DNA of 64,000 nt. Origin: Psammoneis japonica. Lineage: Eukaryota. Every line of letters begins with the position of its first letter. Position 1 is the first letter of the stretch. Both the position numbers and the translations under genes were made by a program. A model generated the notes under the pieces. It saw only the letters and a list, made by a program, of their open reading frames with translations, was not told the DNA's origin and made no database searches. Of the stretch, positions 7,163-61,800 are shown piece after piece. The DNA is taken from NCBI GenBank assembly GCA_008632985.1, contig QPGO01000184.1, forward strand, positions 62,001 through 126,000. Reading direction: 5' to 3'.

Positions 7163-7365
7163 TATGCCACGACGCCGCTTTATGCTTGACTACTGTTAAA
7201 TTTTTTTAATATTCAGCAATTGTTGAGGTGCAAATGAATCATCCCTTTGCATTCAATATAGGCAAGTGAAGATCGCCGAAGCGAAGGAGTGGTCAGGGTT
7301 GTGTACAGTAATAATGGGGCCCTATCGCCGTCGCTTTCAACAGCGTCATACATGAATGATGAATG

Positions 7366-8602: not shown

Positions 8603-8603
8603 N

Positions 8604-22020: not shown

Positions 22021-22119
22021 GCTCCAATACACGGCTGCTGCTGCTGCTGCTGTTTTGGCGTGTTGTTACAATTTCAACATTGTGCTTGCCAAGCAAGGTG
22101 CATAAAGTTATTGGTCCGT

Positions 22120-25100
22120 TGATGTGGCTGCGGTCAGCCGTGTGACAAGTGACAAGTCGACGCCGGGGAGGTACCCGGAGTCATGGCGGGTTCATTCATG
22201 CCCAACCCCAATCGAAAAATGCCGGCAGGGTTTTTCGACCACAACAAAAAGCGCAATGGCAACTTTTCATGATGCTCTTTGTTCGTTGCAAATGGTTCAT
22301 GGCGGTTCGTTTGGTGAAGAGAAAAGCACACCTTCATGATCTCGTTTTCGAGGCACGTTGTCATTTTGGGGGAAATGGATCTGGCCGGCTTTTTGCTGGA
22401 TGACACTGTCTGATGAACAAGTCGCAGCTGCCAGTGGAGCTTCAAACATGTGGCATTTGTTTCCACTGGAGTGGTGACATTGGTGGGTGGAGTTGGTGAG
22501 AGACATTGATGGGGGATGCCATGCTTGCACTGCCAATTGACCCATTTTGTTTGTTCATGAGATGACATTGTGGCACCATGACTTGACGGTTCCGGCTGAG
22601 GATTTGCAGCTGGGAGAGTGTTGGCCGACACGCTGAACAAGAAATTGTGCCCCATTTGTTGCTGTCCATGGGGGTGCACTGACTGCACACATTGTGAGAG
22701 TGAGTTTCCTTTGGATTTCATCATGGCACCCATGACAAAGACTTTTAAAAAGTGGAGCCACACATGGTCAACAAAACATGTCAGATTGATTGACAACATT
22801 TCTTCTTCCCTTTGACTTGTCTCATGTGCAGAATGCAGTGCATCATTTTTTCCTTCTTGTGTTGTGTGGTCACAAAAAATGCAAACCACAACGGCTCCAG
22901 AACAAAGGCCAAGGCAAAAACAGAGCTGCGCGTGAGCAATGTCAACATGTGTGATTTAGCGGCAAAGATGACATTGTCTGATGAGCAAGTCGCAGCTGCC
23001 AATGGAGCTTCAAACATGTGACGTGTGGCAACATTGGTGGGTGGAGTTGGTGAGAGACATTGGTGGGGGATGCCATGCTTGCACTGCCAATTGACCCATT
23101 TTGTTTGTTCATGAGATGACATTGTGGTGCCATGACTTGGTGGTTCCAGCTGAGGATTTGCAGCTGGGAGAGTGTTGGCCGACATGCTGAACAAGAAATT
23201 GCACCTCATTTGTTGCTGTCCATGGGGGTGCACTGACTGTGCACATTGTGAGAGTGAGTTTCCTTTGGATTTCATCATGGCACCCATGACAAAGACTTTT
23301 GAAAAGTGCAGAACAAAAAGAAGAAAACTTGTTGGGTTTGGTTGCATCCGGACCATTTTGCTCGGCAAGAAGATTTGGTGCACAGCAAGGGTCGATGGCG
23401 GATTGAGCCTTCTGTCTGGCACACATCAAAAGGTCCAGCGATGATGACCTGTCAAGAGCATGACCAAGGACATGACAAATGACATGTTCATCCGCCTGCA
23501 CATCCATGTTCAAATCTGCCCAGCAAAAGTGCTGATGTTGTTTTTGAGTGTGGGGCCCACCATGGAAGCACTTTGCACCCGGCACAATGTGACACCTGTT
23601 GCCCTTGCACCATCAGCTGTAGCTTGTTTCATTTGAAGGAGGTTTTCCATGCCTGGGTCATTTGGGAAATCTTGATTCCAGAATCACCTCTAAACAGGGA
23701 ACAAGCATGGACCCTCCTGTTGTTGTTGGCAGCCCTGCATTGGCTCGTCAATGTTTTTTGAATGGATGGAAGGGTGGTGCATCTGACGTTGAACCATCTG
23801 GAGTGTCAGCCATGCTGTGGTGTGCTTGAGTGCAATTGCACCTGAGCTGCAGCATTGATTTCAGGATGTGGCGGCTCCATCCTCACTCCTGTCCTCCTGA
23901 GACAGCTCTGCAGCTTTCTCCGGCTGGCCCAGATTCAATCATCTCACACATTCTTTGGAGTGAGGGGAGTCACACAGTTGCCAACAACCAAGCCATCCCA
24001 AACTGGCAATCCACAATTGTCATCAACACACAGCATTTGTGTCTGCTGGCAATGATGCGCCAAGTTGACATCATTGCCATGTGTTGGCTCAACACAGTTG
24101 CACTGCACTGAATTGTTGCTCATCTGTGGACCTTGTTCAAAATGACTGCTGCATGTCTGACTTGTGGCCTGTCCTCAAAAAGGACCAGTTCAAACAATTG
24201 TGCTCCAGCCAACATTGCAATCCATTCCCAGCTTTTGCATGGTGGGAGTCGCAGCAACCTTTTTTGTTTTAAAGCTGTGCCTGATTGTTTGTCTCCTTTC
24301 ATTTGAAATGCAGATGCCACACGAGGCACGTGCAACTTGTCTTGTTCATTGTCATCCATGTTGTTTGGCATCAGTGCAGCATGAAACTCTGTGGATGCAT
24401 CAGCATTGCCACTGGGAGAAGTCTCGAAATTGCCAACGTGGTTGTGACCATTTGGGGGGAGTCTCAAGCCAGCTGCTGCTAAAAAATGTCTGCTCCTCAG
24501 TGCCTTTGGGGGGTTGCCAGCACCTGGTGCAATTCTGCAGCACGTGCACAAGAAGATGACGAGTCTGTCCGCAGCTTTCACGGCTGGAGACTTCCCCCAC
24601 ATTGAACATTGATGGACCTGCACCATGATGACAGCCGCGCGGCCCTCATTCTTTCTCTGCCTTGTGGGTTTGGGTGGACAACATCACAAACATGAGAAAG
24701 ACAAAGTGTTGGTCCTGGTTTGGATTCAAAGGGACCAGCAACAGGGGACGGACTGTGTGGAAACAGCAGCAAGGAAGTCTTTGCAGCCACAGCACATTTT
24801 GCCATGAAGATGAGGGCAATGAGAGACGATTCGATGTGTCATGTGCAAACGAGCAAAAGTTGGCTTGTTGCTTTCCACTGCGCAGTGATGGTCCAAGCTC
24901 GATGGCATGTCTTGCTCTCGCGACAAGCTGGTTTCGAGAAAACCCCACCAGCAAAAGAAAGAGATTCATCGGAAAGCAATGCAACCTCATCCTTGCCATC
25001 ATCCTTTGTTGTTTCCATCAGATTCATTGTCGACAACTGATGCCCTTGTCAAGGAACAAATGAAGATGGCTGCACATGCCGACATGCGCGGGTCTGGAAT

Positions 25101-26440
25101 GAACAACAAAAAGATCAAATGGGTGTGTTTGCCGCTGAATGAATGCTTGATTGTGCTTTTCTCATGATGCTCTCAGATGTCTGTCGTTTGTCATGCAGGA
25201 ATTGTTGCAAGTTGGTTGACTGATTGGGACAAAGAAGAAACCAACAACAGCTCAATTGAGCCAGTTTTTAACTGCACACATTCTGCTGCCATTGCTGTCC
25301 GAATGCTTGACAACAAGGAAGTGTCTTCTCCTCTCAGTGGGTCATAAAATGAGCACGCACTTTGGGGCTGCAGTGGAAAGGAACACCTCGCGTTGATCAA
25401 CGCAGCCAGCTTAACAAGCTCGGGCAGAGGCATTCAATGCGGGAAGTCCTCAAAAAGGAGCTGGTCTCATGTGCGTCATGATGTGAGGTGTGCACGGTGC
25501 AGCACAACATTTGGAATTTTGAACATGCACTGTTGCATTTTTTGTTTTTGTTTTTCCAATTCTGTGCGCATCCTTGCATTCACACATCCGATGGGTTGGA
25601 CACTGTGTCGCTCAAAACCGAGTGCGGCAAGCAGTCCCAAGACCGCAAGGATTGTGCAAATTCAAATTGTCATTCACATGAAAAGGGCAGCCAACTCATC
25701 CATTTTGTTTGCCTTTAGCCTTTTCGCAGGTGGTTCCGCCAAATCCATTTGGCTGTCACTTGACTTCCTCTTTCTGGGGTTTGGGCTTGGGAAGGCCAGA
25801 CGGCGTCATGGAGCACACATCACAGTCGCTCCATGATGGCCACAAGGTTTGCAATCTTTGAAGAGACGACTGGCTTGGCAGGCCATTTCATGACAGGTGC
25901 CTCCTCACTCCTTTCAAATGGAGTTGTCGAGGAAGCTGTGAAGTGCGATTCTTCTGTGGAAGCAATGCTTGGTTCATCTGGAGCTGGTGTTTCAGAGGGT
26001 GTTGAAATTGCAAGCTTCTTGGTGGGCTTGGTCAATCCCCTTCCAGTCGTGATTTGCACTCGTCCAAAAAGGTCAGTTCGTTCGTCAATGTCTGCCTTGT
26101 CTTTTTCTGCTTGGGATGAAATTTCCATTCGTCTAAAACGTTCAACCAGGTCGTCTAACTCTCCATTGTCTTCTTCACCACTGGGCACTTGATTGTGCAG
26201 GGGCTTGGGGACTCTGTTGTTTGGTTCAACACGGGGTGCTAGATTGCACAGGGGTGCCGTAACAAGGACTGGAAAGCTGGACGGAAGCAGTCGATGCTGT
26301 GGTTTCATCTGACACAGGGGCGCCACAAGGAGTGGACAGCTGGACAGAAACTGCAGACGTTGTCGTTTAGTCCGACACAAGGGCGCCGCAAGGATGAGTG
26401 GAAGGGCCAGACAGAAATGGCCAATGTCATCGTTTAGTCC
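22120..26440. other. TpA-depleted hypermutated block B
   Basis: Only about 16 TA sites seen by eye over ~4.2 kb, about 13 of them YTAR. Confidence 0.9.
22400..23306. repeat. Diverged direct duplication (~22400-22752 vs ~22969-23306)
   Basis: Alignable throughout; substitutions are mostly transitions, many at TA/CG/TG/CA positions. Confidence 0.9.
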
Positions 26441-27350
26441 GATGCGGGTTGCAATGTCCATGGGTTGGGCATTCGCAGTTGATAAAATAGAACGCACAAC
26501 ATCAACCGTGAGGAGTTTTGCAGGCGATGTGACGCGCGCAAGAGGCGTTGGCATGTTTCCCGGCGTTGGACAATCATTTGAAAGCGGGAACTCGAAGATC
26601 GCCGCAGCCAAAACCGAGGGACTGGAACTCGTGTTGTCAAACTTAAGCAAAAAATTTCCACGGACGTTCAGATTGGGGGGCATGCGGAAGTTTTTGAGGC
26701 CTTTGGTGACGAAAGACTCGATTTGGCTCACGTTGGTCGCGGAGGATTTGAACTCAATCCCGACACAAACGGAGGTTGGAGCGCAAGCGAGAAAGACTTT
26801 CTTCGAGTCCAAGGTAGAATTGACAGCCTTGAAAGGCACATTGAGGGGATGGACTTTGCCAAGGGCTTGGGCGAGTCCGGAATTGGGCGTGATCGGAAGC
26901 CGGTGAATGCGCTCGACCTGGGTCGCGCATGATTTGAACTCATTCGCGACACAAACGGAGTTGGAGCGCAAGCGAGAAAGACTTTCTTCAAGTCCACGGT
27001 AAAATTGACAGCCTTTAAACGCACATTGAAGGAATGGACGTTGCCAAAGGCTTGGGCGAGTCCGGAATTGGGAGTGATCGGAAGCTGGTGAAGCCTCTGA
27101 GCCACGCCTCGTACGACATGCGGGTGGAGCTCTCATGTATAACAATCGACAGAGTCTTTTTTGTCGGCGTGGCAACAACGTCGTGAGTCGTGTCCGCTTC
27201 TTCATCGTCGCTGCGATTCGAGTTTGCTTTCAAAGCGAACAAGGTCAAGACGGAAACGGCGGCAAGAGGATCGTTGCGGGTCAAAGCAACGACACCACCA
27301 GAGATGATAGTAGAAGAGAGGATGGTAACGACGGTCGAAGAGAATTTCAT
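25820..27350 (-). pseudogene. Degenerate or frameshifted gene of unknown function with ~185-bp and ~60-bp internal repeats
   Basis: Signal-like N-terminus MKFSSTVVTILSS (27350) in a different frame from the 461-aa ORF; repeats 26745-26907 vs 26932-27092; 3' half lies in block B and lacks Tyr. Confidence 0.45.
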
Positions 27351-31973: not shown

Positions 31974-32019
31974 ATTGCACTTCAGAATTATGCGGGTTGC
32001 GCATTTGGTGGCTTAGTGC

Positions 32020-35000
32020 AGAGAGAAGGAAGGAAGACACAGGATGCCATGAGGTTGCCAGCACCTCTGTTTTCTCTTGCTTGGTCAATTTTCCTTCTCA
32101 GCACCGACTGAAGAGACTGATGCCGCAACAGCAGCAGCACTTCACCTTGTCACACAGACAATGCTTGTGCTCCAAGCCAGAGCAATGGTTTGAACATCAA
32201 ACAACTTCTTTTGTCGGTGGCAAAGCAGACACAAGTCCTGCAGCATTTGAATGCAGTGACACGTGAGAAGCTACAAACAATGATGCCACGTGTTTGCTTT
32301 GATTGCGGTGCAGCAGCTTCACGCGATGTAGCGCCTTCTTAACCTCATCATGAAGACACGATCTCGAAAGAGTCGAAGCATGGCATGTTCTTCAGGTGGG
32401 ACCCATGGACCCATGCTAACCCGCTCCGACAGATTCAGACTGGGCAGTTCTCGTGGCAGGAGGATGCAATCGCCAGCTGCTGTTCTGTCGATTGTCGCAT
32501 CGTCATGCATCCCCTGCCCGAATCCCACAGATTCGCAAGTGGCAGTTCGCAATTAACGTTTTTCAAATGAGCCTCATTTCACGACTAAATTTTGTTCGAA
32601 CCTGCCTCATCAGCGACCCCTTTTGGCGAGGGCAAATGCTGGGCAAACCTGCAGCTTCAAAAAAATCACAACGTAGAAATGCGCAGAATCAGTGCCGCAA
32701 GCAATCCCATCAGAGGCCCATCACGGCACAATCGGCAAAATCAGTTCCGCTGCTGAAGCACTCACAATCCTCTTGCTCTTTGTAGAGTTGCGGTTGCACC
32801 CCTTGTTGCCATTGCAGTTGTGCTTTCTGTGCTGTTAACTCAACTTTGTGCCCAGCTTCATTCTGGCGTGGTGGGCACTGCAGCTCACAACCCACAACAA
32901 GGAACTGTGTTTGCTGCTGTGGTTTTCTTGCCTCAGCAGCACCCCTTTGCATTGATTGCTGGTGGACAACATTTGGCTTGCGCTGGGTTTCCCACCATCA
33001 TGACGGTCCCCATGGGATTCAGAATGAGATGTCCGCTGACTGCTGCTTTCTCGCCTGTCTTGAGTTCTTCTCTTGCAGTGGCTCAGAGGACCGTCGCCGG
33101 TTCTTGCAATTCTCCTCAAACTTTGTGACTCACCAGTGCTGTTTGTTCTTTTTTCTCTTCTGTGCAGATTGCACTGTGCCGCCCCACTTTCCCTCTCAGA
33201 TGGCTCTTGCTTTTGTTGGAATGTTGTCAGAAGATTGTTGAAAGAATCCAGGTGGTCCGAGCCGTTCAAGACTTTGCAGGCGAAAAGAAGAGATGAGTCG
33301 AGTCACTAGCCAACTTGATGAAAAAGTGCTCAGAGACATCAAGAAACTTTGCACAAAGAAGAAGTGCGGGCAAGACAAAGCGGACAAGGCTGCGATTGAA
33401 GATTGCACAGGCTCGGGCTGCTCGGAGATTGCAACAAGTTGCTTCGTGGTCATCAAACAATGCTGAATCCTGAAATGCTGAAGACACGAGCCAACCATGT
33501 GGATCAAGCCCTCCAATGCTGTCCAAAGCTGAAGTCTTTCAAGGGCATTGTGTGTCGTGGTGTGGAGCTTTTGCAAGAAATGTGCAGTTCATTGAAGCCT
33601 GGCAGCACATTTTTTGACCCAGCATTTTTGAGCACATCTTGCAAATGGGAAAAGTGCAAGAGCTTTCTTTCTGGCAAAGGTGGCTGCAGCACACTCTTTG
33701 AGATTGATTGTAAGATGGGTGTGGACGCAGAGCCACTGGCAAAGAAAAAGAACAAGTGCAAGTGCAAGACATTGTTTCGACCAAGTGCAAAGTTTCTCAT
33801 CAAGTCTGTTGAACAACGAGTTGATGCCTTCTTTGGAAAGATCACTTGTGTGTCCATGGAGCAACCAGCAAACTGGTGAGGGAAGTGAAGCAATGGGCAA
33901 GGCAAGCAAGGTGAGCACACCCACAGCAATTTGCAATTTACTTTTGCACATGCTCTCAGCTGGTTCTTTAGTTGCAAATTTAGATGCTGTCTCACCACAT
34001 GATGACGGTGCCAAAACAGTTGTGTTGATGTCCGGATCTCTGCAGTCAGCTTTGCAGTTCATGACTCCAGTTGGTGCCTTTCTCATTTTGTCTCTGGCAG
34101 AGAGTCAGCATTGTTGGTTGAATGATCACGAGCATGATGCCACAGTTGCATTGAAAAGCAAAGGTCTCCTGTGCATTGTCCTCTTCCAAAGCCTCGCAGC
34201 ATTCCGAATTGGGTGATCTGCCGTGTTGTTCTTCGAAGCCCATCATCTCTCTTTCTGTGCATCGTCAACAGCACTTTGAATGTTGCGCCCACTGTTTCTC
34301 TTCTTTGGTCTCATCATTCTGAGCTCCTCCAACCAGAGCAGTGCAGAATTGCCTGGTGGCCTGTCCATTTGTGAAATTGTCCACTTTCGAAACACAATTG
34401 TCTCCTCACTCAAGAAAGGCTTTCTTGTGACAACAGAGGCACCATCATCCAATTCTTTTCAAGCTTTGGCCTCCAACTTTTCCAAGCAGAGCAGTCCTTG
34501 GTGTTGACCCGGACACATGATTGTTCCATGTCTGTTGCAACCAGCGCAATCTCCCTCATGTGCATTTTGTCACAATCATGGTCGCGGACAAAAACCAGTT
34601 CCATCATTGGCAGTTTTCCCTGCAATCCAACACAACACACAATTTCAAATTGCTTCCAAAGAGTGTTCTTGTTGTTCATTGCAGTTCGCTTCATGCAAAA
34701 TGTGTCTTGCCACCGTGACAAGTGCCTCATCATCCCCACAATTGTGCCACGCTGCACCAAATGTGTCCGTCCCTCTTGAATTCTTGAATCAAGCACATCG
34801 CTCAAATTGACAATCCACAGCATCCTCCCACAGGATGATCATTCCACAAGCAGAGTTGTTTGCAAAATTTGTTTTGTGCTTGAAATGAGCAGAGTCACAC
34901 ATGTGTGGTTGCACTTTTCACAGGTGTTCCAATTTTTCAAAAACCAGCCAAGGCAGCCACTGTGGGCTCCAAACAATTTTTTGACACATTTTCAGCAGCA

Positions 35001-37500
35001 AATGTGGCACTGCACCAAAATTGTCATTTTTTGATGGGTTGACAGTCAATTTTTCTGAAGACCACATGTTTGCAATGCTTTGTTTTGCAGCCCAGCATCT
35101 TGTTTTTAGAGTCAGCTCACTCTTTGCTTGGAAGAGTTTCACCCCAACTGTCCGTTGCATGCATTTTTTTGTGTTTCTGCTGAATTCATTGCTTTGTCAC
35201 ATTAGACACCACACAACTCAGCTGCCAATCTGCTGATTGCACAACAGTTGTGTGCACCCATGTCCTCATTGCATGTCTGACAACAATGAAAAGACTCTCC
35301 TCTGACTCCTCATTGAACCAAGCTCCTTTTGACAGAAAACACCGCTGCAAAGTTGAGTCACAACAAAAACAATTGTGAAAGCTCAGTGCAAAGTGTGTGA
35401 GCCAAAGCAAGTTTGTTGGTCGAACGCACCACAGAAAGGGGGCACTGAAATGACCAGATGGCTCCACATTTGCCAGATGCTTTGAAGACAATCAATTCAA
35501 GGAGCCATGCAATGACAACCCTGATCCCTCAGCAGCGACACAAGCAGACAGCAACAAAACTGCAGCAGTGACACCCACTCTGCTTCCAGCAAGGAGATGG
35601 AAAAGACAGTCAGTCAAAATTCAAGCAACAATGACTGGAGTTGTGACAACCAGCTCAGAGATGGCACACATCATTTGGTGACTGATTTTTGAATGAAGTG
35701 GCCAAAACTGACAAAACAAGAGACTCAAACATGCGCGACATTTGGGATTTGGAAAAGCCTTCAGGTGTTGTGTTGACACAACAGGAGAAAATGACACATT
35801 CCAAAAAAGAGGGGAAAACTGTGCAGGGGCAAAGCCAGCCTTGTGCTCAACTGTGGACAGAGGCAAGTTGCAGAGCACAAGTGATGTGGGCTGAGTGCAC
35901 TGATGCAGTCCAGATGCCATTGAATGATCTTGGTGTGAGCTGCAAGTCCAACCTGCTCCATCTAAAAAAAAACACACGCATGTGGGCACATGCTGCTTGC
36001 ACTTCAACCAGCGCCACACACTGCACAGCAGAAAGCAAGCAAAGAAGAGCCAGAAAAGGTGGCAGCCACAAATGCAAATTTCAAAACACAGTTCATGGAA
36101 TGGGTTGCCAGTGTCAAACATGTGTCTCCTGGTCATGGTGGCACCCTGAAGTGCTCCTCCCTTGTGCCTTGCCGGGGTTTGGCATGTCTTTGAACTTCAC
36201 ACACAGCTTGCCAGTGGCACAACTGCAGGCTGACAAATGTGATGCCACCAAAGGAAAGGCACAAAGTTTTTGGTTTGTTGGCAACATGTCAAGCCACAGA
36301 TGGATCATCTGCCCAAGTGCAAAGTTCTGGCTGCTGCAAAAATCAGCCAAAGAAGTGAAAGCCTCTGCAGAAGAACCTGGCTGGTGGTTGCTGCTGCTGT
36401 GTGCTGGAAACAAGCNNNNNNNNNNNNNNNNNNNNNNNNNNNNNNNNNNNNNNNNNNNNNNNNNNNNNNNNNNNNNNNNNNNNNNNNNNNNNNNNNNNNN
36501 NNNNNNNNNNNNNNNNNNNGGGGGGGGGGGGGGGGGGGGGGGGAGAGTTGGGTGACATGATGTGTGTGCACTGCACACTGCCGCCATTTGCGCACAAACA
36601 TGACACAGGCATTTGACTTGAGTGGCAAGCTTGTGAACTTGACTCATGTTGAACAAATTGTGGGAAAAACAGTGCTTCAATTGCCATGATCTGCTCTGCT
36701 CTGCTCTCTGGTTGTTGGAGCCACCCATGGAACAAGTGGTTGCATGGATGTCTTGCAGGGAGGAGCAGAAAGAAACACCTTTTGACACACACTTAAGTCA
36801 GCTCTCAATGACAACATCTGGGCTGTCACAAGCAACTTTTTCATCAGCTGCCATCCTTTGTTGAATGGTGCAACATGGGAGGATGAGCCCAGAGGTCACA
36901 CAGAGATGCTGCTGGCAAGAGAAATGCAGCTGAAGTGTGGTGGTGAGAAAACCCAAGTGCTGAGTGCTGAGACAGATCACAACGTGTGGTCATGCACGAG
37001 CTGGCTTCAACAAGAACAGGGCATGAAGCAACACAATGGGCCAAAGACGGCTGGCACAAAAGAGTGGCAAAAGCTCAGGTCAAATTGCAGGTGGAACCCA
37101 ACATGCACCAGCACTCCAGCAGAAAACAGAGCAGACCAACTCACAGAGAGATCCGAGCAACCATGCCCGCAGCTGGGCATCTCGTCTCTCTGACGAACTC
37201 ATCAAGAAAGAGCTCCAAGCTGCTTTTTAAAAGAAGCAATGCTGTGCTTTGATTCTTGCATCAGTGTGAGTTTTAAATGCAATGAATGCATGTGCTGTAC
37301 GTGCCGCCGCCCACTCTGTGTTGTTTGGTCTGTCCCCAAGACCAAAACAGAAAACAGCCGTCAGAGCAAAGAGCAAAGGCGTCAGATGTGACCAACTCAA
37401 GACTCAAGTCGTCATCCGCCACCATCCACACGCCCGCCACGTCGCTCGTTCTTGCTCGTTTGCTTTTTTGAATCACGGAGCAACGGATCGGAGTCGAATG
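32020..37500. other. TpA-depleted hypermutated block C (contains assembly gap 36416-36519)
   Basis: TA nearly absent; survivors mostly ttag/ctaa/ttaa/ctag; many overlapping Cys/His-rich spurious ORFs. Confidence 0.9.
33290..33879 (+). pseudogene. ADP-ribosyltransferase (VIP2/C3-like R-S-E family) relic
   Basis: AAIEDCTGSGCSEI / NKLLRG ... VCRG ... FLSTSC ... LFEI ... NKCKCKTLFRP correspond to YT..GY..IN..LR, YRG, STS and ExE.L motifs with Tyr->Cys and Glu->Lys changes. Confidence 0.8.
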
Positions 37501-43109: not shown

Positions 43110-46100
43110 CGAATGTGATACGTACTTGCTATGATATGTAGATTGAGGTTTTGGACAGGAAGCAACCGACAACGCAGTCCATGACTGTCAACACGCGAGC
43201 GAATAACCATCGCCGTGCAGGATCTCATCGCATGCGGTGTGCAATTGGTTTCATATACAATCTTCAGTGACGAAGGATCTATCAAAATATCGAAAATCGC
43301 TTTCTTTAATAAGTTTTATAAAATCATGCATGCTAGTATAATAATTAAATAATTTGGCGCGAACGAAGATCGGAGCCAAGACGGTAGGCCCAGCACAAGG
43401 AGAGGATACCTTGTGGGCGGCTGAGCTCTTGGAGGAGTCACCGCGCGATAGTAGCGCGCAGTAGAAGGCAGACAGACAGACAGACGGACGACGATGAGAG
43501 GCCGCCCCAGTTCCCCTCATTGTGTTTGGCGGACTACCGGTGACGATGGGATCAGTTGCGTCGACCCGACATGGGCCGACAACGCTGAAAATGTCGTTTC
43601 TGCCGATTAGCATGCCTCACACAATCGCCCACAAGTTGCACTTTGGCACCGGTTGATCCATGGATTGGCTTGACCATCTGCAGAGCCTGCAAAACCATGA
43701 TGAATCAGCCGTCGGTCTGGATCCAGAAATGTTCCACAAGCCAAACCGACTGTGCATGATGCCTGCACTGCTCTCGCTGCTCTTGACTTGTCTCATCAGA
43801 GTGCGAACAATGCAGTCCGGTGTTTTGTTTTTTGGCAAATGAGGTTGCTCCTGCGCCGCAAACACCCCTTTGATCATTCTGGATCCGGATGACCTCCGCA
43901 AGCCAACTGATCGGGATTGAATTACAATCCACCTCGTTTCGTCTGATCTCATGTCAGAACGCAAGTGCATTGTCCACATGGCCCATCGCTGTCTGGGCGC
44001 GCAACCTTCTGTTGATTGGACACTCTGCATCTTCCAATTTTCTCTCTTGATTGCACTGGATCTGGACAACATCCACAAGCCAGTTGATCGAAAACATCAC
44101 TGCAATTACCTCGTGTGATCAACGCAGCCTGGTGTCACTTGGGTCCACCATCCTTCATTGTCAGGATGCCAAAAAATCGGCCTTTCAGACCGTCACTCTC
44201 TTCCTTTCGCCACCCGCCATTGCGGTCACCGATCTCACATCTGTCTCATGTGTGCTCATGTGCATGCAATGTTCTGGCCATTGCAATGGTTTCACATGAA
44301 TCATTTTTGTTGCATGTTGTGACATGAAAGAATTTGTGTTCTTTGCACTCAGAGGCGAGACATCCTCTTTTTTGCAATTTCGACGCAAATGTCAGCGCAC
44401 ATTGTTTGGCACAATCTTGTGTGTGTCTTCATTGTCAATCACCTCATCCGGGAGATTCCACAAGCATTCTATCCCAATCCGCAATTGGTGCACCATCTGC
44501 ATGTCCTGCATCCTCCCGCCCAAAAATCACGACCACAACTCCCCCAATTTTCAAACTCTTAGACTCCATTTTCTTTCCGTTCGTCAAAATTTGACGATGC
44601 TCCGTCTGCTGCTCAGTCTTGTAGACCTGCACTCACATGACCCTGGTCGTGCAAAGTGGATCTCGCCGACTCACCATGAGTTTTCGGCAGGATTTCAACG
44701 TGATTCCATGTCGAAATCCCCGCTAGAAAAACTCGTTTCCTCTCACAAAACCCCGGTTTTGCCTTTTTGCACTCAGCTTCTTCGTCTCCTTCCAAGCCTC
44801 CAACCCACCATGGCCGCCAACATCCTCACCGCCATTGAGCATGGCAAAGCTTCTCCCATCAAGCACTGTTCCCAATTGGGAGCACAGTCTGAGTTTGCTC
44901 TTAACCAGCCCAAGCTGGTCCTCCTTCGTGACACCAACGGCACTCTTGCTGACCATGTCTGCGGTCAGTTCGACCAATTCCTCATGTTCTGTGAGGGCCG
45001 TGTCGTTCCCGTTACGAAGCCAATTCCCTTTGTCAATGATGGGAACCAAGTCAAGTTCCTGTCAAACTTTTCTGACACTGTCGGGGACGTTGTCCCCATG
45101 TCAGGTGCTCACCAACATTTCCGAGGACACTTCGCAACCCTCGTGCGTCGTGAGGACATTGTCACGTGCAACTTGCCTCGTGCCGAGACTCCTCCAGATG
45201 ACATTGAAGGTCCGCTTCTTGTGGATGGCAATCAAGATGCGGCGTCCCTTGAGCATCTCCATTTTGGCAACCCCGCTGCTCAAGATGATCAACCGGTTGT
45301 TGCCGCTCTTCCGATGGCATTCCCCGTGCCTCCAGGCTGCTCCTGCCCCTTGGACTTTGTTGGTTGAGGCCAACATGGGATTTCCCCACCCACGCAGCCT
45401 CCAAGGGAAAATTCATCATGGGTCAATCAACACAGGCATTCGGCATCTCACGTGACTCAACGTGACACGACAACACACCATGCATGACAACAACAACTTG
45501 TTGACATGTGGTGATGACCCGCTCCCTCCTCGACATTTGCTTTTTGCAGGCACCGCTGGAAACAAGCAAAAAGAGGCTGCTGAAAGCTTTGCGCCCAAGC
45601 ACGGCAGCGGGTGCTTCTGCAGCAGCGACCAAACTTGGTCAAACACATCCCAGTTTTCCATGGATGGGTGGATGCAGAGGCAGCAAAACAAAAAGCCATT
45701 GCATTTTCTTGTTGGGGTCAGCTTTGTGCTCCTGGCTTGCTTTTTGTTGCTCTCAGCCTCTGTCTGTGCTTTTGCACAGTGAAGTGCGTTCGGCTTCAAA
45801 CCAAACTTTTGAGCCACGTCCGACCGGTGGACACCCGTCTTGAGACACTGTCCACCTTGCCACCAACAATCAATTGACCCTCCAGCAAATGCCCATTGTG
45901 AACATTGGCCACGGTGTCAACCAGCTTGTTGGGACAAATGACATTTTTGTTTGCGCTTGAACGATGAGCAATGTTTCACACAAAGTGTCATGCTCCCTTT
46001 GCACAAGACATCTTCGGATCCCATGGGAAAAATGGTGCACAGTCAAAAGATGAACAGGCAGCCATGTGGACCGGTCCTTCTTGCGCAACTTGCACCATGT

Positions 46101-49100
46101 CTGCCGGGTCCACCTTGACTGGATCACACACCCAAGCTTGCATTTTGTCACCGCACCTTGAGACCTTGGGCACCGTTTAAAAAGCAGGAATCCAGTTGCA
46201 CCCAAGAAACGCATTGCTCCTGTGTCTGCTCCCCCGGCATTTGCTGTCTCCAGTTTGCTGCACATCCATTTCATTGCAGATGTCCAGTCCATGAAAGGCA
46301 GCGCACTTTTGCACAAAGGGTCAATCAAAAAAGTCCCAGTCATCCATTGGTCACGACAATTTGCAGACTGGGTTGTTGGCATTTGGCAAAGAATTGTTTT
46401 AAGAGCGCTTCTTCCGACTCTTCATTGAAAATGGCAAATGGCCCGGGATGCGACGGCTTGGGCGTGTGCTAAAAGTCGGTCACATCCTGTGACATGACAC
46501 CATGAGACAAAAGTGGATGTCCTTGTTCATTGACCATGTGCAAAATCACAAAGATGGAATCCACCATCGCATCGGGCACTCAACATCAAAGGCCAGAAAG
46601 GATGGATTGGCCTTGGTTTCGGCATCTTGATTGCACATTCGATGCCCGCATTGTGTGCATTGTGGGCATCACAGTGCACCGTGTTCCAGCACAAATGTTC
46701 AAGTCAACACAAACGCAAGCCAACAGGGGACATTGTGCTCTCTAACATCCGCCAAGGTGTCTGAGACATTTTTGGGTGCAGGGCAGGTTCGATTGCATCG
46801 AAACACATGCCTGGTTTTGGTTGGAGTTTTTGATTGTTTTGAATCAATTCCTTGAGAGGTTTGCAGACTTCACAAGCATGGGCCGTCCATGACCCAGTTT
46901 GGGATCCAGATGGTCAGGCTGATCTAGACACAACCTGGGAACCACACCCACCCTTTGGAGAGACTGTGAGCTTCGCAAATTTTCAAGATGTTCAAAATGA
47001 GCACTTCAAATTGCACCGTGTGATCATCTCTAGCAACAACGGGAATGACATGAAACTGCCGGCACAGGTCGCACAGCACCGAGCTTCTGCACACAAGTGA
47101 AAGTCCAGTCTGGCTTGTTCTAGACCAGCCGGAGATTCATCTTTTGTTCCACTGCCGACAGAAGCATTTGATGCAATTTTCGATGCATGAACAACAAGCA
47201 CAATCAGCACAGGTGTGATTGAGAATGTCTCATGAAAAATCAAGAAAGTGCTGATCATTCTCACAGTGTCGACTTGCCATCGGGGCAACATGTTGAACAG
47301 CCATCTGCGGTTCAGAGGATGCAGCGAGATTGCGTTGTTCATGCCCAAACTGTTGACTCCGTTTCACCTTGAACCTTGAGCATGATGTTTGCGACTTCTT
47401 GCTTGTTTTTTTCTGCATCTGGTTGCGAGTGTCCGCATCCAATTTGTGTTCTTTGGTTTTGTTGTTGTCGTCAATGATGCCAAGAGAGAAGCGACTGCAA
47501 CAGGCAACATTGTGAATTGTTGCTGTTCAAATGTTCATCTTGAATCTGCAAGAATGCAGTGCATGGCAAATGGCATGAAATTCTCTGACGCAACACGTGC
47601 ATGAGACGCTTCTCAAACAACAACTGCACCGCACATGGATTTGGCTCATTGTGGCACGTTGTGAACCTGCTCGGTGCACTGCGACGCATGCTGCCATTGT
47701 TTGGAATCAATTTTGATTTTTAAGGTGGAGGGACACATCCAAAGAGATTGACTCTTTTGCTTTTTCAACTTGTTCTGCCTCCTTCCTGACCATGATGACA
47801 AACAGTTTCTTCACGGAATGGACACTCACCTTGTGTGTCTGGGCTGCCTTGGCTTGCTCAGAGACAGGCTGCATGGCCTGGGTGGTTTCAACAACAAAAT
47901 TGCAGAGAACTCTGCTGCTGCTTCAAAAGTCAGATCCAGGAGCAGAGCCAAGTGTTTTTCTTTTTTGACTGGCAAAATCCTTGCTTGGTGGGGTCAGCGG
48001 GGCCTGGGAAGTGGAGCCCGGCCTTGCAAGTGTTTGTTTCTCACAAAGAGTGCTGCCATGCTTGTCAAGGTCATCATAAAAAAACTTTCAAGGCATTGTC
48101 AACTGTAAATCGCAGGAAGGGAGAGAGTGCTTTTGTGCACCTCCTGTCTGTCAAAATGCAACAAAAATTTAGAGCGTGAAGCCTGGTGCACATCTGCACA
48201 TGAGCGTGCACACAGGACAGACTGAGTGATGAAACATGAGAGTTGTTCAAGGCACTGCTTGCCTTTCAATTTCCATCAAGTGCAAAAAGATCATCGCATG
48301 ATCTGGGATCCAAGATTTGATTGAGATCTCAAGTTGCAAGATGAAGCAAGGTGAACTTTGATTGAGCAAAAAGGGGCATGGCCATGTGATGAGCAAGCAC
48401 AGCTGCAGCCTGCAAAAATTGGCTTGCAACTGAAATGCAAAAACATCACAGGGAGAATTCAGGCTCTTGTCATGCAAAAAATGGTCAATCATGATGCAGC
48501 AAATGTGGTTGGTGTGGTGTGCTGGCGCTGCAGGAGACTTGCCACAGCAGCTGGTTTGATGTGCCACAGTGTCAAAAATGCAGCAGTGTGTGAAAATTCT
48601 CAAGAGCTCAAGCCAGTTGGCGCGGTGACTTGGTCATTCCACAATGGCCTGGCTGCACACTTGAAGAGATCTCCAATCTCCAAGGCAGCACACAAAAAGG
48701 TGAACAAACCATGTGTTGAGAGTTGACACAACATCATCAACAATCTCAGCAGGAAGGTTGTGATGGATGTGGATGTCACCAAAACATTCAGAGGAGTTGT
48801 GTCTTTGCATTTGGTCAGGAGTCTGCTGCAATGACATCTGTCACAAGATTTTGGGAAGGGCATGCTTCATTTGGGATGTGTGCTTGGGTCTTGTCATGCA
48901 ACAATCCAAGTGGGGCTGTTGCTGCAAATGTGGTGCAGTCACATCAATCTGGCAAAAGACTTCAGAAAACATGCTGCACTCTGATTGGAGCAGCGGCAGT
49001 TGCTCAAACAACACCTTTTCATTCCAATCAGTTTGCTTGTGCAAGAAAGCATGCTGCGAGTTGGCAAAGACAAGCCTGATGTCACTGAGTGATGCCAAGA

Positions 49101-49749
49101 TGGAAGCACATGGAACAAATGAAATGCGCTCATTTTCCAGCTGATTCCAACTCTTCAAACTGATTCTCCAACCCCAGACACCAGACAGAACACTTCACAG
49201 TTGCAACACTTTGAAAGTTGCTCCAGTCGGAAATGATGCAAAAATCAGTCACCAAGTCATTTGTGGATGGGAGTGCCAGTTGATTTGAGTTCCTGCACTC
49301 AATTGGCATCTGGCCACACTCTTTTGCAACCAAAGACCACAGCTTTCCCACCTTTTCCAAGGATCTCTGCTCAGCACATTTGGCAAGATGCGCAAACCCA
49401 GTGTTCCAAGCAACGGAGACAGATGCTGGGCAAAGTGCAGTCAAAGTTGCATCTCCTCCCAGATTGGAAAATGTGCAGCAACATTCAATTTCATCATTGC
49501 CTTTGGCGCTGCATTCTTCGTTTGATCTGATGACTGCATTGTCGCCGCCATTTGTTGTGTCCCAGCTGCCATCACTCCCACAGCCCACCTGATTGTTGCC
49601 TCCAGCACCCCAATCAACTTCCATCCAAAATCTTTGTGCAAGCAACCAACAGCCAAGGTGGGCTTTGACCTGCAGTGTCACATCCAGCTTGTTTTGCTCA
49701 AGCCTTGCCAAAGGTTGCTGCACTTGTTCTGTTGCTGTTGTTGCATCTC

Positions 49750-50620
49750 ATGCAGCTGCCATGAGAGATTTAAACATCTTGCAACAGGTTTTGACCAAAC
49801 CAAATCCAAGTGAGATCCACAGCATCTGGCTTTTTGAGCATGATTTCGTGGATGGCATTGCACAATTGTGCCCATCCTTCCATCCTTTGGCAACTTGCGG
49901 AGCCTTTGTTTGAGAGCCCAGCGGCACACCATCAGCAACATCAGCCCCAAAGAAATCTGCCGTTTGCATCAAATGCTTGTTTTGCTTCTCCAAGGCTGTC
50001 CAAGGCTGAAAACACTTTGGATTTAACAGAAACCAACATCGGGGACAAAGGTGACCTTGGCAACAGCGCATTGGCCCCAAAGGTGCAAAGTTGTTCTTTT
50101 CAGAATTGGCGCAGAACACACGAATGACTCATGATGTCTGCTTCTTTTCTCAAATCCAGCTGGGGATGAGGGTGCAGAGTGCATCGGAGACTGACTGCAG
50201 AAGAGTTCCTCTGTCAAACAACAAATCTCTGCATTTGCGGCATGGCTCCATTGAAGATGAGGGAGCCAAATTGTTGGCAAAAATGCTTGAAAACAACACA
50301 TCAATTGAACATTTTTACCTTTGTGGGAACAACGTTGGAGATGAAGGTGCAAAAGCATTGGGCGAGATGTTTGTGCAAAACGATTTTGAGAAAAACTCTG
50401 TTGGTGACATTGTCAAGGCCACGCTGGCAAAAGGTGTGAAGCAGAATCTGACCATTGAATGTTGAGGTTTGTGGGAAGGCATGGATGAGGACCTGAGGGC
50501 TGAAATCGAACAGTGCCGCCACATTTTGCGAGTGTGGTGCATGATCAAGAGGCATCTGATGGCATTTGGGCACGCATGTTGGAGCAAGCTCGCAACAACC
50601 CAAACCTTGCTTTCCACACT
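49750..50620 (+). pseudogene. RNI-like leucine-rich-repeat protein relic
   Basis: LDLTETNIGDKG; LHLRHGSIEDEGAKLLAKMLENNTSIEHFYLCGNNVGDEGAKALGEM; frameshifts and stops. Confidence 0.75.
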
Positions 50621-51299
50621 GTCAAGGCAAAAGTGGAGCATTTCAACCGTGAACGTCAGGTGCTTTGTTGGTGGAAGCAAGCGATGCAACTGCAATTGCC
50701 CACACATCATTGTCCTGCTGCCGGCACAGTTGTCATCCACTTGCGATGGAAAAGCCTTGGAACTGTGCACGTTGCACCCTGCCGGGTCACCAAAGGATTC
50801 CTTTGAGCCACTTTACACCTGAACCCAGTGGCCCTGCAAAAACAAAGAAACATTGCGCTCGATTGTTGGCGTGGCAGTTGTCTCAATCATTGCGGTGTCA
50901 CACAGACGGCATCACAAACGGAGGACTCCTTCGACATTCTAGACCCAAAGGTTTCTTCAAACATAACCTCTTTGGCGCCATTGTTTCCGTTCTTGAAAAA
51001 TGAATGCCTCCTGCAGAACAGCAGTCAGCTTCATCGGGTGCGAAGAAAGCTTTTTCGATGGACGAGATGGAGCTCTTCCACGACAATGTGATTGGCATCA
51101 CCAGTGTTGCAGTGTGTGACATGAGTGCTTCATCTGGCAACACCATTGAGTGGGTTTTTGTTGCAGCAGTCTCTGCCAGAGAGGACAAACAATGAGCGAC
51201 GAGTTCCGTGCAGAGGCGAAACCTCACAGATTGTTGTCCAGTCCACCACCATTGGGCATGGTGACGTCTCGGTCTTGATGAAAACTGCTGTTTCGACCA

Positions 51300-51740
51300 C
51301 CAGCATCACTCTCAACGACACGTTCATCTTGTTCGTTTTGCACAAAGCTGCAGCACGGATTCGTGGCAACGTGGTGATCGTCATCATCATAGAAAATGGC
51401 ATGGCCCACACCCAAACCAAGCACCACGCTCATTTTAAAAAAGCTCCAAGGAAAAGGTCATGGTCACCAACATTAGAATGCACCCACAAAAGGCTTGGAG
51501 TGTGTGCAAGAGTGCAGCGAACATTCGTAGTGGTGGAGAGCCACCGCGACTGCTTGTTTGCTTGTTGTCATTGTGACGCCTCTTGTGGAGCACCTGTCGC
51601 CACTTGGCAACACCCTCGGTCACAATGACCAGAGCAAATGCCAGAACAAGAGCACCGCTAAATTTGACACGAGAATCTAGAATCCAACTGAGAAAGAACA
51701 AATTGAGGCAGTGTTGGTTGCCCTTGAGCGACAACCGAAA
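51300..51740 (-). pseudogene. Ctr-family copper transporter relic
   Basis: CLNLFFLSWILDSRVKF...LHTLQAFCGCILMLVTMTFSLELF / SVVLGLGVGHAIF: MxxxM and GxxxG motifs, with GY->GC and GY->GH; frameshift/stop at ~51435. Confidence 0.8.
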
Positions 51741-58674: not shown

Positions 58675-58869
58675 TGTATATCAAATAAGGGTCGTTTACG
58701 TAGAGACGCAGCACAAAGACAGTGTTGATTTGTTTAGCTAAAGGCCGCTTCCCCGTCGCCGCGTTCGTCATGGGCACAGACCTTTCGCTCTCGCTCGGCG
58801 CTCGGCCTCTCAGCACAGCGCGCGGTGGATGGGCCATTCAGCTTTCTTACCAGAGGAGTCCCCCCCCCA

Positions 58870-61800
58870 AACAAAACTGTCTCAGTGACGCACTCCTGCT
58901 TGACGTCGAGCGACCCACAAGCGGATCTTGCCGTCATCCACTGCCCGCCAATTTCTCGTGCACCGCGCAGTGATGCTGTCTTCTGTTTCCAGTGTGGTGA
59001 TGACAAAAACACAGGCAATGACAACCTGTGGACATCCTTCTGTCCTGTTGCGTTCATGTCATTTGCCCGTGCTGCTTCCACTTGTCTGCAGTCTTTGACC
59101 GCAGGACACACTGTCTTTGTTTTGCTTTCCTGCAGCTGCTTTGTCCTGTGGCTGACCTTGGAGCGAAACCTTTGCTGAGTTTCCGGCCCTGCAATTGTGG
59201 ATGGGGCAAATGGTTGCCCTTCTCATGGAAGAGTGAACAGACAGAGTGAAAAGTGTTTGATGTTTACAAGGGCAACGGGATGTGCCGACTGTTTTTCCAA
59301 TTGTGCAAAAATGTCATCTCAAGCAGTGGAAGCTCAGGCAACACGTTGAAAGAATGGGTGGATGGGGTGTCACAGTGGAAGTTTAAAAGAGTCGTTCCGG
59401 CACATTTGGATGCTCCAATCAAGGTGGACCCTTCCAGAATTTTTCAATGTCTTTGCCTTTCTCCAAAAGGTGCAGAATGAAGTTTGCTTTCGTGGTGAGA
59501 TGCTCCATTCCTTCAGAAGGCTGAAGAAGGCCTTTTGAGCTTCTTGGTTTTCAAATCAAAGCTTGGCACCTTGAGGAGTCCAACGTGCAACATTTCATGT
59601 TTCATTTGGATCTTATGATGGAATGCAGAAAGCACACAGTGCATGTTTGCACAGCATCCAAGAACTGCTCTCACCAGCTGCCACCGCGCTGCTGCCGTCT
59701 CTGTTGAGTGCTGTCGTGTGCAACCCCTTTGGCGAGGAGCAATTGCTGCCCTGCTGGTGCCAAGGCACTTCTCACACTGCTGCTTTCACGGCATCATAGA
59801 CCAAGTCATGCTCTTGTTAAATGGACTCAACTGATGGCCTCGGATTGATTGCTTCGAGTCGATCACAGCAGGTTGACAACTGAATCAACAAAGATCAATC
59901 ACAACACCTCCCTGAGCAAGAGCCCAGGAACAGCAATGAGGTCATTCTCTTTCTTCCACACTGCGTGATGACAAAGTTTGAGCAACAACAATGGCGGTGG
60001 CAGCAATTTGTTTGTGACATTGTCTGCCCAGATGTGATCTCTCTTTAAACAACAGAAGCTGCTCATTTCTCATTCTTTTCAAGCACAATCTTGCTGACAA
60101 CCATGACAACATGATGCTGGGATGGATGCGCACTTGTGCTTCCCATGGCTTGGAGATGCTTGCAAAAATTTGCCAAAGTGTGTCACGGCTGTGCCTGGAG
60201 AGGGAGGCTCCAAAAATTCATCCTTTCTCAACAAGAAGAAAAAAGGAGAGTGTGCGGGGATTTTACAGCAGCATGACCCAACAACTTCAAGGATTGCAGG
60301 ACTTTTTGAATCATGACTCCCATGAGTGTCAGACAATGGTTTGTTTTGCAGTTGCTTTTGTTTGTTTTGTTGTTGTGAAAGGCTGTGGCAACGGGCAACA
60401 TGTTCCTTGTTGTTTCTTTCTTGTTGCAAGCTCATCTGTCTTGTTCCTGCAACAGTGGTGGCTTGTGTTGCTTTTCATTTTAAAGAGAGGTGGAAAAGTC
60501 CAAACCACTCTTGCACACATTGAAACATTGCACACTGGTTGTGCCTGTTGCCATTGCTCCACTGGCGAGAGCAGAGGAGACAAGTGCCCCTGCCAGAGAA
60601 AATCAAAGCTGCAGAGAATCTAGAGAGAATCTCTCTGTGACAGTGGCTTGATCTAGAGAGAGCAGTCATCACAAGCTCAATGTTTTAGAGCATGTTCCTG
60701 CACAGTTCGGATGCATGAAATGATGAAATGGTGCCGTCGTGTTTCATGCCCACAGCCAGCAGATTGCACTCACGAAGCGAAAGAAGCACGGTGGCTGCAC
60801 TGGGCAATGCGGAGAAATGTCAATTGATCAAAGCAAACAAACACATGGAAGGTGATCTCTCACCTGAATGTGTGGCTGAAGAAAACACAAGCCAAATTGC
60901 CGTCACTTCCAAATCTCCCTCTGACTCCCACAACATTGGCCAAAACAAACACCAAAACCTGCCATTGTTCTGCAGCCCCGGTTCCTTTCAGAAGAATCAC
61001 ACATCATGTCCAGCCACATGTTGAACATTGTAAAAGGTGACAACACCATCTTTGCCTCTCTCTGGCTGCACGATCGACATGGGTGATTCTTGGTTTTGGT
61101 GCGTTTCACACAGAATTCTGCATGTCTGGCACTTGACGTTGATGCTTCCTCTCGATGGATGCCTCAAAATTTGCTCTCGATTCTCTCACAATCTCTTCTT
61201 TGACGAGGAAAGCAGCACATTAAAGTCATCACCATGATTGCTTTCATGAACAATGTTGCTGTCATCTCACTTGGCATTGCTGCCAGTGCCGTTGGCACTG
61301 GTCCCTTGGCCTGCCCGCTTTTGGCTGTCTTTGATGCAACGGCGCAAGGTGTGTTGATTGCTGTGAAAGCAAGTCAAGACATGCTTCGCAGTTCTTTGGC
61401 TACAACCACGATTCATGTGCCAATCTCGAAAGCCATGATGACTCCTTTGTCTGCCTCCAGAACATCCTGCGCAACACCACACCAATGAGTGTGCCCATTG
61501 AAGCTCAAATCAGGTCGAGCATTCATTGTGTGTCTTTTGACCACAAGGACTTCAACTCCACCCTTCTTCACAACACCATTTGAAACTGCACGCCTCCAGA
61601 TGACATGCCTGTTGATGCTCTGAAAGCCTCGAGCTCTGTCTGCCAGCCCTCCTTCGACCTGTCCTTCAAGCACGAAATCGATTTGTCCAGCCGTTTTCAA
61701 AATGTCCTTCGAGAGAACACGCCCGCCGCAATGACTGCCATCCAGACGTTTTCCAAAACTTGCCAGATTTTGTCAAATTTCACCAGTGAGACCACATTGA

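Follow-up and report, generated by a model that had tools for sequence, protein, structure and literature searches.

Hypermutation of TpA dinucleotides has been described in the alga Bigelowiella natans (Mettrop et al., 10.64898/2026.01.13.699255), and this preprint was the only relevant report found when the literature on TpA/TpG/CpA hypermutation was searched. As reported there, 231 of 302 de novo mutations fell within two integrated viral regions, and all but one of the mutations in those regions were A-to-G or T-to-C changes, every one of these on TpA. The TpA-to-TpG/CpA hypermutation affects integrated DNA of nucleocytoplasmic large DNA viruses and virophages, and 324 TpA-poor coding sequences and 124 clusters depleted in TpA and enriched in CpA+TpG were listed. 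An ADAT2-like enzyme was proposed on candidate-gene grounds only, and the ADAT2 proteins of amphioxus and trypanosome were cited as possibly having dual A/C activity (10.64898/2026.01.13.699255). Here, we describe a stretch of 64,000 nucleotides (nt) from Psammoneis japonica contig QPGO01000184.1, referred to below as the window, whose coordinates are used throughout. The window contains sharply bounded islands of DNA for which the published TpA-to-TpG/CpA hypermutation of integrated foreign DNA in B. natans is the closest match, and one of these islands holds the relic of an ADP-ribosyltransferase (ART) gene. Judged from its sequence and that of its relatives, the relic is very probably a pseudogene, derived from a small single-exon gene for a mono-ADP-ribosyltransferase of the arginine (R-S-E) type, that was hypermutated, together with approximately 5.2 kb of surrounding DNA, to near saturation.

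A probable ART pseudogene in two reading frames

The relic begins with an ATG at position 33293 and ends with a TGA at 33877-33879, both read from the + strand, and is divided as follows.

33293..33430, + strand: ART relic, frame A; from the start codon up to the residues before the conserved Asn, with the first motif; matches positions 6-36 of the family hidden Markov model (HMM), weak alone (E = 0.41)
33431..33432, + strand: frameshift of two surplus bases (equally, one missing base); the HMM match passes from position 36 in frame A to position 35 in frame B
33433..33879, + strand: ART relic, frame B; from the invariant Asn-x-x-Leu-Arg to the TGA, the main body of the catalytic domain; E values of 1.1e-23 (phmmer), 3.4e-34 (family HMM), and 4.8e-4 (Vis)

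The codons quoted in the original prediction were all found in place, each stretch in a single reading frame: gat tgc aca ggc tcg ggc tgc at 33401-33421, gtg tgt cgt ggt at 33550-33561, agc aca tct tgc at 33631-33642, and aac aag tgc aag tgc aag aca ttg ttt from 33751. The prediction did not mention that these stretches occupy two frames: the first motif lies in frame A (33293-33430) and the other three lie in frame B (from 33433). Since frame A matched positions 6-36 and frame B matched positions 35-168 of an HMM built from the homologues, the two frames represent one domain that is split by the frame change at 33431-33432. In the family, the second motif Tyr is separated from the invariant Asn by exactly three residues, and the same spacing is obtained in the relic if 33431-33432 are skipped.

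When the observed 159-amino-acid frame B (P0001) was searched with phmmer against 1.84 billion representative sequences, 66 proteins were found at E <= 1e-3 and 9 at E <= 1e-10, the best at 1.1e-23, and these homologues were 28 to 49% identical. All 28 of the top phmmer matches that were scanned matched PF03496 (ADPrib_exo_Tox) and PF01129 (ART) at E <= 0.01, and 27 of the 28 were above the curated cutoff; the single one just below it was the 90-amino-acid P0024. Against PDB, the relic itself matched the Vis arginine ART (4xzj; 4.8e-4), Tre1 (0.013), and HopU1 (0.54), and in the alignment with Vis its cRG lay on yRG, its STS on STS, and its KcK on EaE. A profile of 20 family members matched Vis (4xzj) at 5.9e-31 and Tre1 (6dre/6drh) at 1.4e-29; 52 PDB sequences were matched at E <= 1e-3, and further matches were XopAI, ExoT/ExoS, HopU1, SpvB, Vip2, C2-I, iota Ia, CDTa, C3, and ART2.2. 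A word-indexed protein search with the relic yielded 13 candidates, none of them significant. The phmmer matches, the Pfam content of the homologues, the PDB matches, and the family HMM thus all agree with the original prediction that this is the relic of an R-S-E-type ART. As judged by the phmmer and PDB matches, this similarity goes far beyond what chance would produce.

Conserved tyrosine and glutamate positions of the relic

For comparison with the family, the relic was read through with one X in place of the frameshift and aligned with 66 domain segments (64 of them unique), which came from 63 of the 66 phmmer hits. Of the 57 columns with a majority residue, the relic carried that residue in 42. 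The motif columns, all on the + strand, were as follows.

33404, + strand: Cys; family Y in 60 of 60
33419, + strand: Cys; family Y40/F10/H4 of 61, after correction of a one-column shift caused by the X
33553, + strand: Cys; aromatic column of the family, Y49/F8/W3/H1 of 64; forms the feature 33553..33558 with the following Arg codon
33556-33558, + strand: catalytic Arg, kept, in [YF]-R-G; family R in 64 of 64; the preceding aromatic residue is Cys
33631..33639, + strand: S-T-S, kept; family S in 64 of 64, T in 48 of 64, S in 52 of 64
33754..33759, + strand: Lys-Cys, a two-codon insertion found in the relic only, just before E-x-E; 2 of 64 family segments only have residues there
33760..33768, + strand: Lys-Cys-Lys on Glu-x-Glu, with Lys at 33760 and 33766; family E in 63 of 64 at each; catalytic motif lost

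In frame A, both positions at which the family has Tyr in the first motif are thus Cys (33404-33406 and 33419-33421). At the five motif columns (three Tyr and two Glu), neither Cys nor Lys occurred in any of the 64 unique segments, so that no family member was found of the kind that the original prediction had named as evidence against it, and its claim of ancestral Tyr at three motif positions and ancestral Glu at both E-x-E positions holds on the family columns. Read against these columns, every Tyr codon has been removed from the relic, the motif Tyr residues have become Cys, and both catalytic Glu residues have become Lys. The residue composition agreed with this: Tyr was absent (0 of 195 residues; family mean, 3.3%), Cys made up 15 of 195 residues or 7.7% (family mean, 0.9%; maximum, 2.8%), and His made up 2 of 195. 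Because the gene has a frameshift and has lost E-x-E, it is unable to encode an active enzyme, and the loss of E-x-E leads us to expect that nicotinamide adenine dinucleotide-dependent transferase activity would be absent.

Other parts of the original prediction were not supported by the family. The column after S-T-S, for which an ancestral Tyr had been proposed, is variable (T17/K10/S8/R5/Y4/C1 of 64), and STSC is the sequence found in P0006, an intact homologue. Ancestral Tyr had also been proposed inside and before E-x-E; at the middle position of this motif, the family has A29/K10/D6/E5/C3/Y1, and the Lys-Cys pair before the motif is the insertion at 33754..33759, which looks like a 6-nt tandem duplication. 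It had further been claimed that the relic can be restored by reversing two rules, TA to TG and CG to CA, on the + strand. These rules do not cover the frameshift or at least 8 further positions at which the relic departs from the family majority; apart from the changes considered below, the departures comprised three transversions, one other transition, and five that require two or more steps. The CG-to-CA rule is incomplete, since 12 CG are left in the relic region, including both conserved Arg codons.

The near-invariant Tyr, Arg, Ser, and Glu residues of the ART family give the hypermutation a polarity at the protein level, showing which residues were ancestral. The relic therefore provides independent confirmation that TA and CG were lost to TG and CA, and it rules out that the blocks arrived with an odd composition.

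Islands of TA and CG loss

Within the 590-nt relic region, there were 2 TA (observed/expected ratio [o/e], 0.05), 12 CG (0.39), 64 TG (1.73), and 58 CA (1.65). No second copy of the relic, or of 32500-34700, was found within the window. A 1-kb profile and the positions of TA showed that the relic lies in one of five blocks, none of which is assigned to a strand.

1976..4204: island of the same kind as that holding the relic
22173..26130: island of the same kind
32015..37227: island holding the relic; TA o/e 0.00-0.16, CG 0.12-0.58, TG and CA 1.5-2.4; sharp edges
43536..51390: island of the same kind; holds a mutated copy (46850-47320) of the sequence at 4380-4880
58849..64000: island of the same kind; reaches the window end

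Across the five blocks, the 1-kb profile gave TA o/e values of 0.00 to 0.16, TG and CA values of 1.5 to 2.4, and CG values mostly of 0.06 to 0.75, CG climbing toward 1 over the final 2 kb; in the DNA between blocks, TA was mostly at 0.5 to 0.8 and CG at about 1. At the island edges, the spacing of TA changes sharply from about 20 nt to hundreds of nt. Intact, mostly single-exon genes lie between the islands (ornithine cyclodeaminase, sulfotransferase, Fam20C-like, aldose 1-epimerase, RSN1/CSC1-like, and ribosomal protein S17), and the relic island fills the gap from the intact aldose 1-epimerase gene (30145-31503, +) to the RSN1/CSC1-like gene (from 37717, +).

When the islands were pooled and compared with the rest of the window, TA occurred at 3.4 versus 43.9 per kb (8%) and CG at 23.9 versus 54.0 per kb (44%). 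As shares of all dinucleotides, the loss of TA+CG was 7.07% and the gain of CA+TG was 7.33%; this balance indicates that both dinucleotides went to TG/CA. With the cutoffs of the preprint (10.64898/2026.01.13.699255), 23 of 64 1-kb intervals passed, among them four clusters of 3 or more (22001-26000, 32001-37000, 44001-52000, and 59001-63000); the interval 33001-34000 had a Rho of 0.07 for TA and of 1.58 for CA+TG. The rho of CG was 0.41 in passing intervals versus 1.00 in the others, and rho TA and rho CG were correlated (Spearman, 0.78).

The direction of change could also be followed in a pair of paralogous sequences that are 68% identical, one at an island edge and less mutated (4380-4880) and the other inside an island (47320-46850). 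The 12 TA of the 4380-4880 copy corresponded to 5 TG, 4 CA, 1 TA that was kept, and 2 others, and its 10 CG corresponded to 5 TG, 1 CA, 3 CG that were kept, and 1 TA. Six TG/CA swaps in this pair suggest that both copies were hit independently. Together, these results show that TA, and more slowly CG, gave way to TG or CA on both strands within sharply bounded islands, with neighboring genes untouched.

Two further observations concern the second island. A 469-amino-acid open frame at its right edge (25823-27229, -) had no Pfam match, and there TA o/e was 0.17 to 0.28 and CG was 0.98 to 1.28; TA loss and CG loss are therefore uncoupled at this place. Inside the same island is a 359-nt direct repeat (22399-22757 and 22967-23311; 90% identical), and the differences between its copies could serve to date the duplication relative to the hypermutation.

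Effect of the neighboring base and a possible mechanism

Surviving TA and CG sites were analyzed in the islands at 1976-4204, 22173-26130, 32015-37227, 43536-51390, and 58849-62300 relative to the rest of the window. TA survival, expressed as the ratio of the density in the island to that in the rest, was 0.18 to 0.28 for TAA, 0.05 to 0.13 for TAG, 0.01 to 0.05 for TAC, and 0 to 0.02 for TAT, and this was the same in all five islands. By tetranucleotide, survival was 0.66 for TTAA, 0.19 for CTAG, 0.24 for TTAG/CTAA, and 0.00 for GTAC, ATAT, and GTAT/ATAC (RTAY, 0.00). CG survival was lowest for TCGT/ACGA (0.29) and highest for GCGC and CCGG (about 0.8). These TA survival values fit a model in which the A on each strand is hit according to its 3' neighbor in the order T > C >> G > A.

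The TA process may accordingly be pictured as a deamination of adenine (A to I, read as G) that prefers 5'-T-A-Y and acts on either strand. In tRNA anticodon loops, ADAT/TadA enzymes naturally act on A34, which comes after U33 and, in tRNA-Arg(ACG), before C; this resembles T-A-Y. In a Tyr codon (TAY), the A on the sense strand would always be a good target, giving Cys, and the A on the antisense strand would be a good target only after a purine, giving His; the bases before the three motif Tyr codons are T, C, and G. Tyr probably became Cys rather than His because TA followed by C or T is the preferred target. The loss of CG would reflect a slower deamination of cytosine, probably methylated, in silenced DNA, or else a side activity of the same enzyme.

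The main competitor accepts the same hypermutated pseudogene and places the TA process on thymine, as a T-to-C change at 5'-R-T-A caused, for example, by a modified thymine that mispairs with G. Such a preference is the mirror image of that for A followed by a pyrimidine, and the sequence cannot tell the two apart; nothing in the window speaks against it, and the ADAT2-like enzyme preferred in the preprint was put forward on candidate-gene grounds only. We consider this thymine-based version unlikely and retain adenine deamination as the preferred reading of the TA process.

Taken together, the TA and CG changes might represent an RIP-like (repeat-induced point mutation-like) defense that is broader than the published one, combining fast deamination of A in 5'-T-A-Y with slower deamination of C in CpG, strongest in W-C-G; we put this joint reading forward tentatively, and it is rather doubtful. 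If it were true, a single ADAT2-like enzyme could carry out both reactions, or a deaminase could be coupled to the methylation of CpG in these silenced blocks. Erasure would then extend beyond integrated viruses to all blocks bearing a foreign or silent mark, among them toxin-type ART genes and copies of cellular-type genes, and the process would cover about 40% of the DNA in some regions. Should the window come from an organism other than B. natans, that organism would be a second one with this system. The effect of the 3' base (T > C >> G > A) narrows the search for the enzyme and would explain the change of Tyr to Cys.

Strand symmetry of the changes and weighing of the alternatives

When the relic was compared with the family-majority residues, TA-to-TG changes accounted for three columns plus the shifted second motif Tyr, CG-to-CA changes accounted for two columns, and a CG-to-TG change accounted for one (Thr to Met). 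Two more columns fit TA to CA, with an Ala where the family has V30/I30 and a Thr where it has V47/I16. The one-strand rules of the original prediction thus do not cover the Met, the Ala, or the Thr, and in the paralogue pair TA-to-TG and TA-to-CA changes occurred 5 and 4 times; the two rules are half of a symmetric two-strand process.

A strand-specific alternative would retain TA to TG and CG to CA on the + strand only, either because the block is an mRNA-derived copy that was edited A to G on the RNA and G to A via cDNA or because a transcription-coupled process acted on one strand. The motif columns agree with it in part, since Cys, and never His, occupies the three columns with Tyr in the family and Lys has replaced both Glu. 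Two of the three Tyr codons, however, follow a pyrimidine, a context in which a T-A-Y preference would yield Cys alone, and the Thr-to-Met change (CG to TG) and the Ala and Thr residues on Val/Ile columns (TA to CA) are contrary to such rules. A tetranucleotide context regression on the 584-nt relic attributed TG to TA with a coefficient of 0.90 and CA to TA with 0.26, and attributed CA to CG with 0.34 and TG to CG with 0; this regression is crude, with coefficients that sum to more than 1 and large residuals on short segments, and is a weak hint only, and the next 1.6 kb leans the opposite way. Moreover, the relic region holds 64 TG versus 58 CA, both outcomes occur within 400 nt of the paralogue pair, and a runs test on the order of TG and CA found no strand-coordinated blocks in any island (z = -1.7 to +1.3). 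The island also extends past the ART gene, by 1.3 kb on the upstream side and by 3.3 kb on the downstream side, and neither poly-A nor tandem repeats nor terminal repeats, direct or inverted, were found around it. A one-strand origin is therefore very unlikely.

Several observations weigh against the preferred reading, that of an ART pseudogene hypermutated on both strands by a process like that of B. natans. The changes in the relic lean toward one strand (4 TA to TG and 2 CG to CA versus 1 CG to TG, counted on majority residues, and 2 possible TA to CA), as do the regression coefficients given above, so there may be a modest local strand bias. The ancestral states are deduced from relatives that are at most 49% identical. 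The E value of the family HMM is not independent, as the proteins used to build the model had been retrieved with the relic itself. Pfam models gave 0 families on both observed frames at E <= 10 and again 0 at E <= 0.01. The effect of the 3' neighbor is deduced from surviving sites compared with the other DNA of the window, not from observed mutations. None of the 147 island open reading frames scanned had a viral or transposon Pfam domain, so that foreign DNA is only a possible target of the process here. Finally, the 124 clusters of B. natans were reported from approximately 94 Mb (callable, 85 Mb or 90%), and here there are 4 to 5 clusters in 64 kb; this reflects either a high local density or a hint of an organism other than B. 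natans.

The remaining alternatives survive less well. A live, divergent ART-like gene, encoding a catalytically dead pseudoenzyme in which Cys and Lys are native, could account for a frame B that is open for 159 codons and keeps the Arg, the S-T-S, and 42 of 57 majority residues, and one intact homologue does have Cys after S-T-S. Open frames of this kind are expected by chance, however, as TAA and TAG are nearly gone. In the 4.4 kb from 32015 to 36415, TAA and TAG number 15 and 13 per strand, versus 99 and 109 for TGA; open reading frames of more than 120 amino acids occur in every island frame, and long Cys-rich, Tyr-free frames are found in all six (for example, 44300-45364, +, 355 amino acids). 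The frameshift inside the first motif, the complete absence of Tyr, and a Cys content far above the family maximum also argue against a live gene, as does the loss of TA and CG, which is the same in every frame, on either strand, and across 5 kb of flanking sequence; we regard this alternative as extremely unlikely. The loss of TAA and TAG has a practical consequence, in that such blocks give rise to spurious Cys-rich, Tyr-free open reading frames that annotators may mistake for genes. An assembly or base-calling artifact in densely modified DNA whose true sequence keeps TA and CG is hardly credible, even though the changes are limited to two self-complementary dinucleotides in sharply bounded blocks, because the relic also has a frameshift, an insertion, and transversions, because the loss of CG is partial and varies among islands, because the runs of 1, 104, 1, and 333 N look like those of a short-read or Sanger scaffold, which would read such modifications correctly, and because TpA changes were seen to arise de novo in Illumina-sequenced B. 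natans lines (10.64898/2026.01.13.699255).

Contents of the islands and other features of the window

The Pfam scan of the 147 island open reading frames gave four domains above the curated cutoffs and two further matches below cutoff.

49133-49747, - strand: DUF6940
50055-50462, + strand: LRR_6
51438-51752, - strand: Ctr copper transporter; near the island edge with partial TA loss, either a relic or an edge gene
59250-59477, + strand: DUF4336; near the island edge with partial TA loss, either a relic or an edge gene

With regard to the origin of the ART gene, its nearest relatives (35 to 49% identical) come from environmental or eukaryote-like assemblies; they are unnamed proteins and not known bacterial toxins, and several of them have long N-terminal extensions or five tandem ART domains. 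A homology search with the intact P0006 found 4 unnamed ENA/JGI proteins only, and a pattern scan of 185,579 prokaryote genomes found no close relative of P0006. In IMG/VR, ART relatives (24 loci) were only 23 to 35% identical to the family. ESM Atlas contained ART clusters from eukaryotes (rotifers) and from bacteria and gave no origin signal.

Three regions of the window outside the islands were also recorded. A 2,019-nt direct duplicate (5354-7372 and 8604-10622; 99.9% identical) lies in DNA of normal composition with a single N (8603) at the junction, and it touches two ornithine cyclodeaminase-like open reading frames, one of full length (4972-6033, -) and one with a MULE transposase-like C-terminal part (7964-9283, -); it could reflect a duplication of recent date, the capture of a gene by a transposon, or a join made during assembly. 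Tandem repeats of approximately 230 to 300 nt at 11300-13500 (83 to 90% identical) have a strong GC skew and far more TG than CA (106 versus 22 per kb) and encode a PT-repeat-like low-complexity open reading frame (11888-13474, -). The region at 56000-58100 is low in GC (0.345 over 56001-58000) and contains a 333-N gap (56370-56702), with inverted similarity across the gap (56184-56334 versus 56849-56705) and diverged tandem repeats at 57500-58120. Searches of the window for Rfam families and for tRNAs gave no match.

Comparison with known enzymes and mutational processes

The relic resembles R-S-E ARTs in domain length, in the order of its motifs, in the Y-x-x-x-x-Y-x-x-[ILM]-N-x-x-L-R region, in [YF]-R-G with the Arg kept, in the S-T-S that was kept, and in an [IV]-L-F-x-P tail after the catalytic motif. 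It differs from them in having K-x-K for E-x-E, Cys for the motif Tyr residues, a broken frame, and no match to a Pfam model.

The islands share with the B. natans clusters (10.64898/2026.01.13.699255) the loss of TA, the gain of TG and CA on both strands, the clustering of passing 1-kb intervals, and a mostly degraded, unannotatable content. The background is close to the means of B. natans coding sequences (TA, 0.044 here versus 0.041; CA+TG, 0.141 versus 0.137), and the TA level is 0.0034 in the islands versus 0.0018 in the low-TpA subset of B. natans. Three differences were found. The islands also lose 56% of CG, and the term CpG is absent from the main text of the preprint. The T-A-Y effect has no wording in that main text, although the image of its Fig. 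2B may show one. The recognizable relics here are of cellular or toxin type (ART, Ctr, LRR_6, DUF4336, and DUF6940), not viral or transposon. The main text likewise contains no "ADP-ribos," "trinucleotide," "context," or "tyrosine"; Fig. 2B and the supplementary tables may hold information relevant to the motif and to the list of Pfam domains. In the wider literature, Bigelowiella was found joined with DNA methylation and DNMT, no item was found joining B. natans with 5-methylcytosine, and what was found on B. natans and ADP-ribosyltransferase concerns poly(ADP-ribose) polymerases or ubiquitin. The TpA process in one alga is thus already in print, and CpG codecay, the effect of the 3' neighbor, and the relic described here are not in the main text of that report. 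What the present analysis adds to the TpA process is CpG decay in the same blocks with balanced dinucleotide counts, the effect of the 3' base, and victims that are not viral.

The preprint itself draws a comparison with fungal RIP and also discusses adenine and cytosine deaminases. Fungal RIP converts CpA to TpA, so that TA is enriched in duplicated DNA. The islands resemble its products in that discrete blocks beside untouched genes have decayed by point mutation and dead genes are left behind, and they differ in that TA is cut to 8% of background, CA is enriched, and the ART block is single copy in the window. With the ADAR, ADAT, and TadA adenine deaminases and the AID/APOBEC cytosine deaminases, whose substrates are nucleic acids of viruses or repeats, the islands share transition-only, neighbor-dependent editing and a 5' T or U before the edited A. 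Unlike the editing by those deaminases, the changes here are at the DNA level, heritable, carried to saturation, and confined to blocks, and no enzyme is tied to the process. ADARs moreover prefer a 3' G, in contrast to the 3' pyrimidine favored in the islands.

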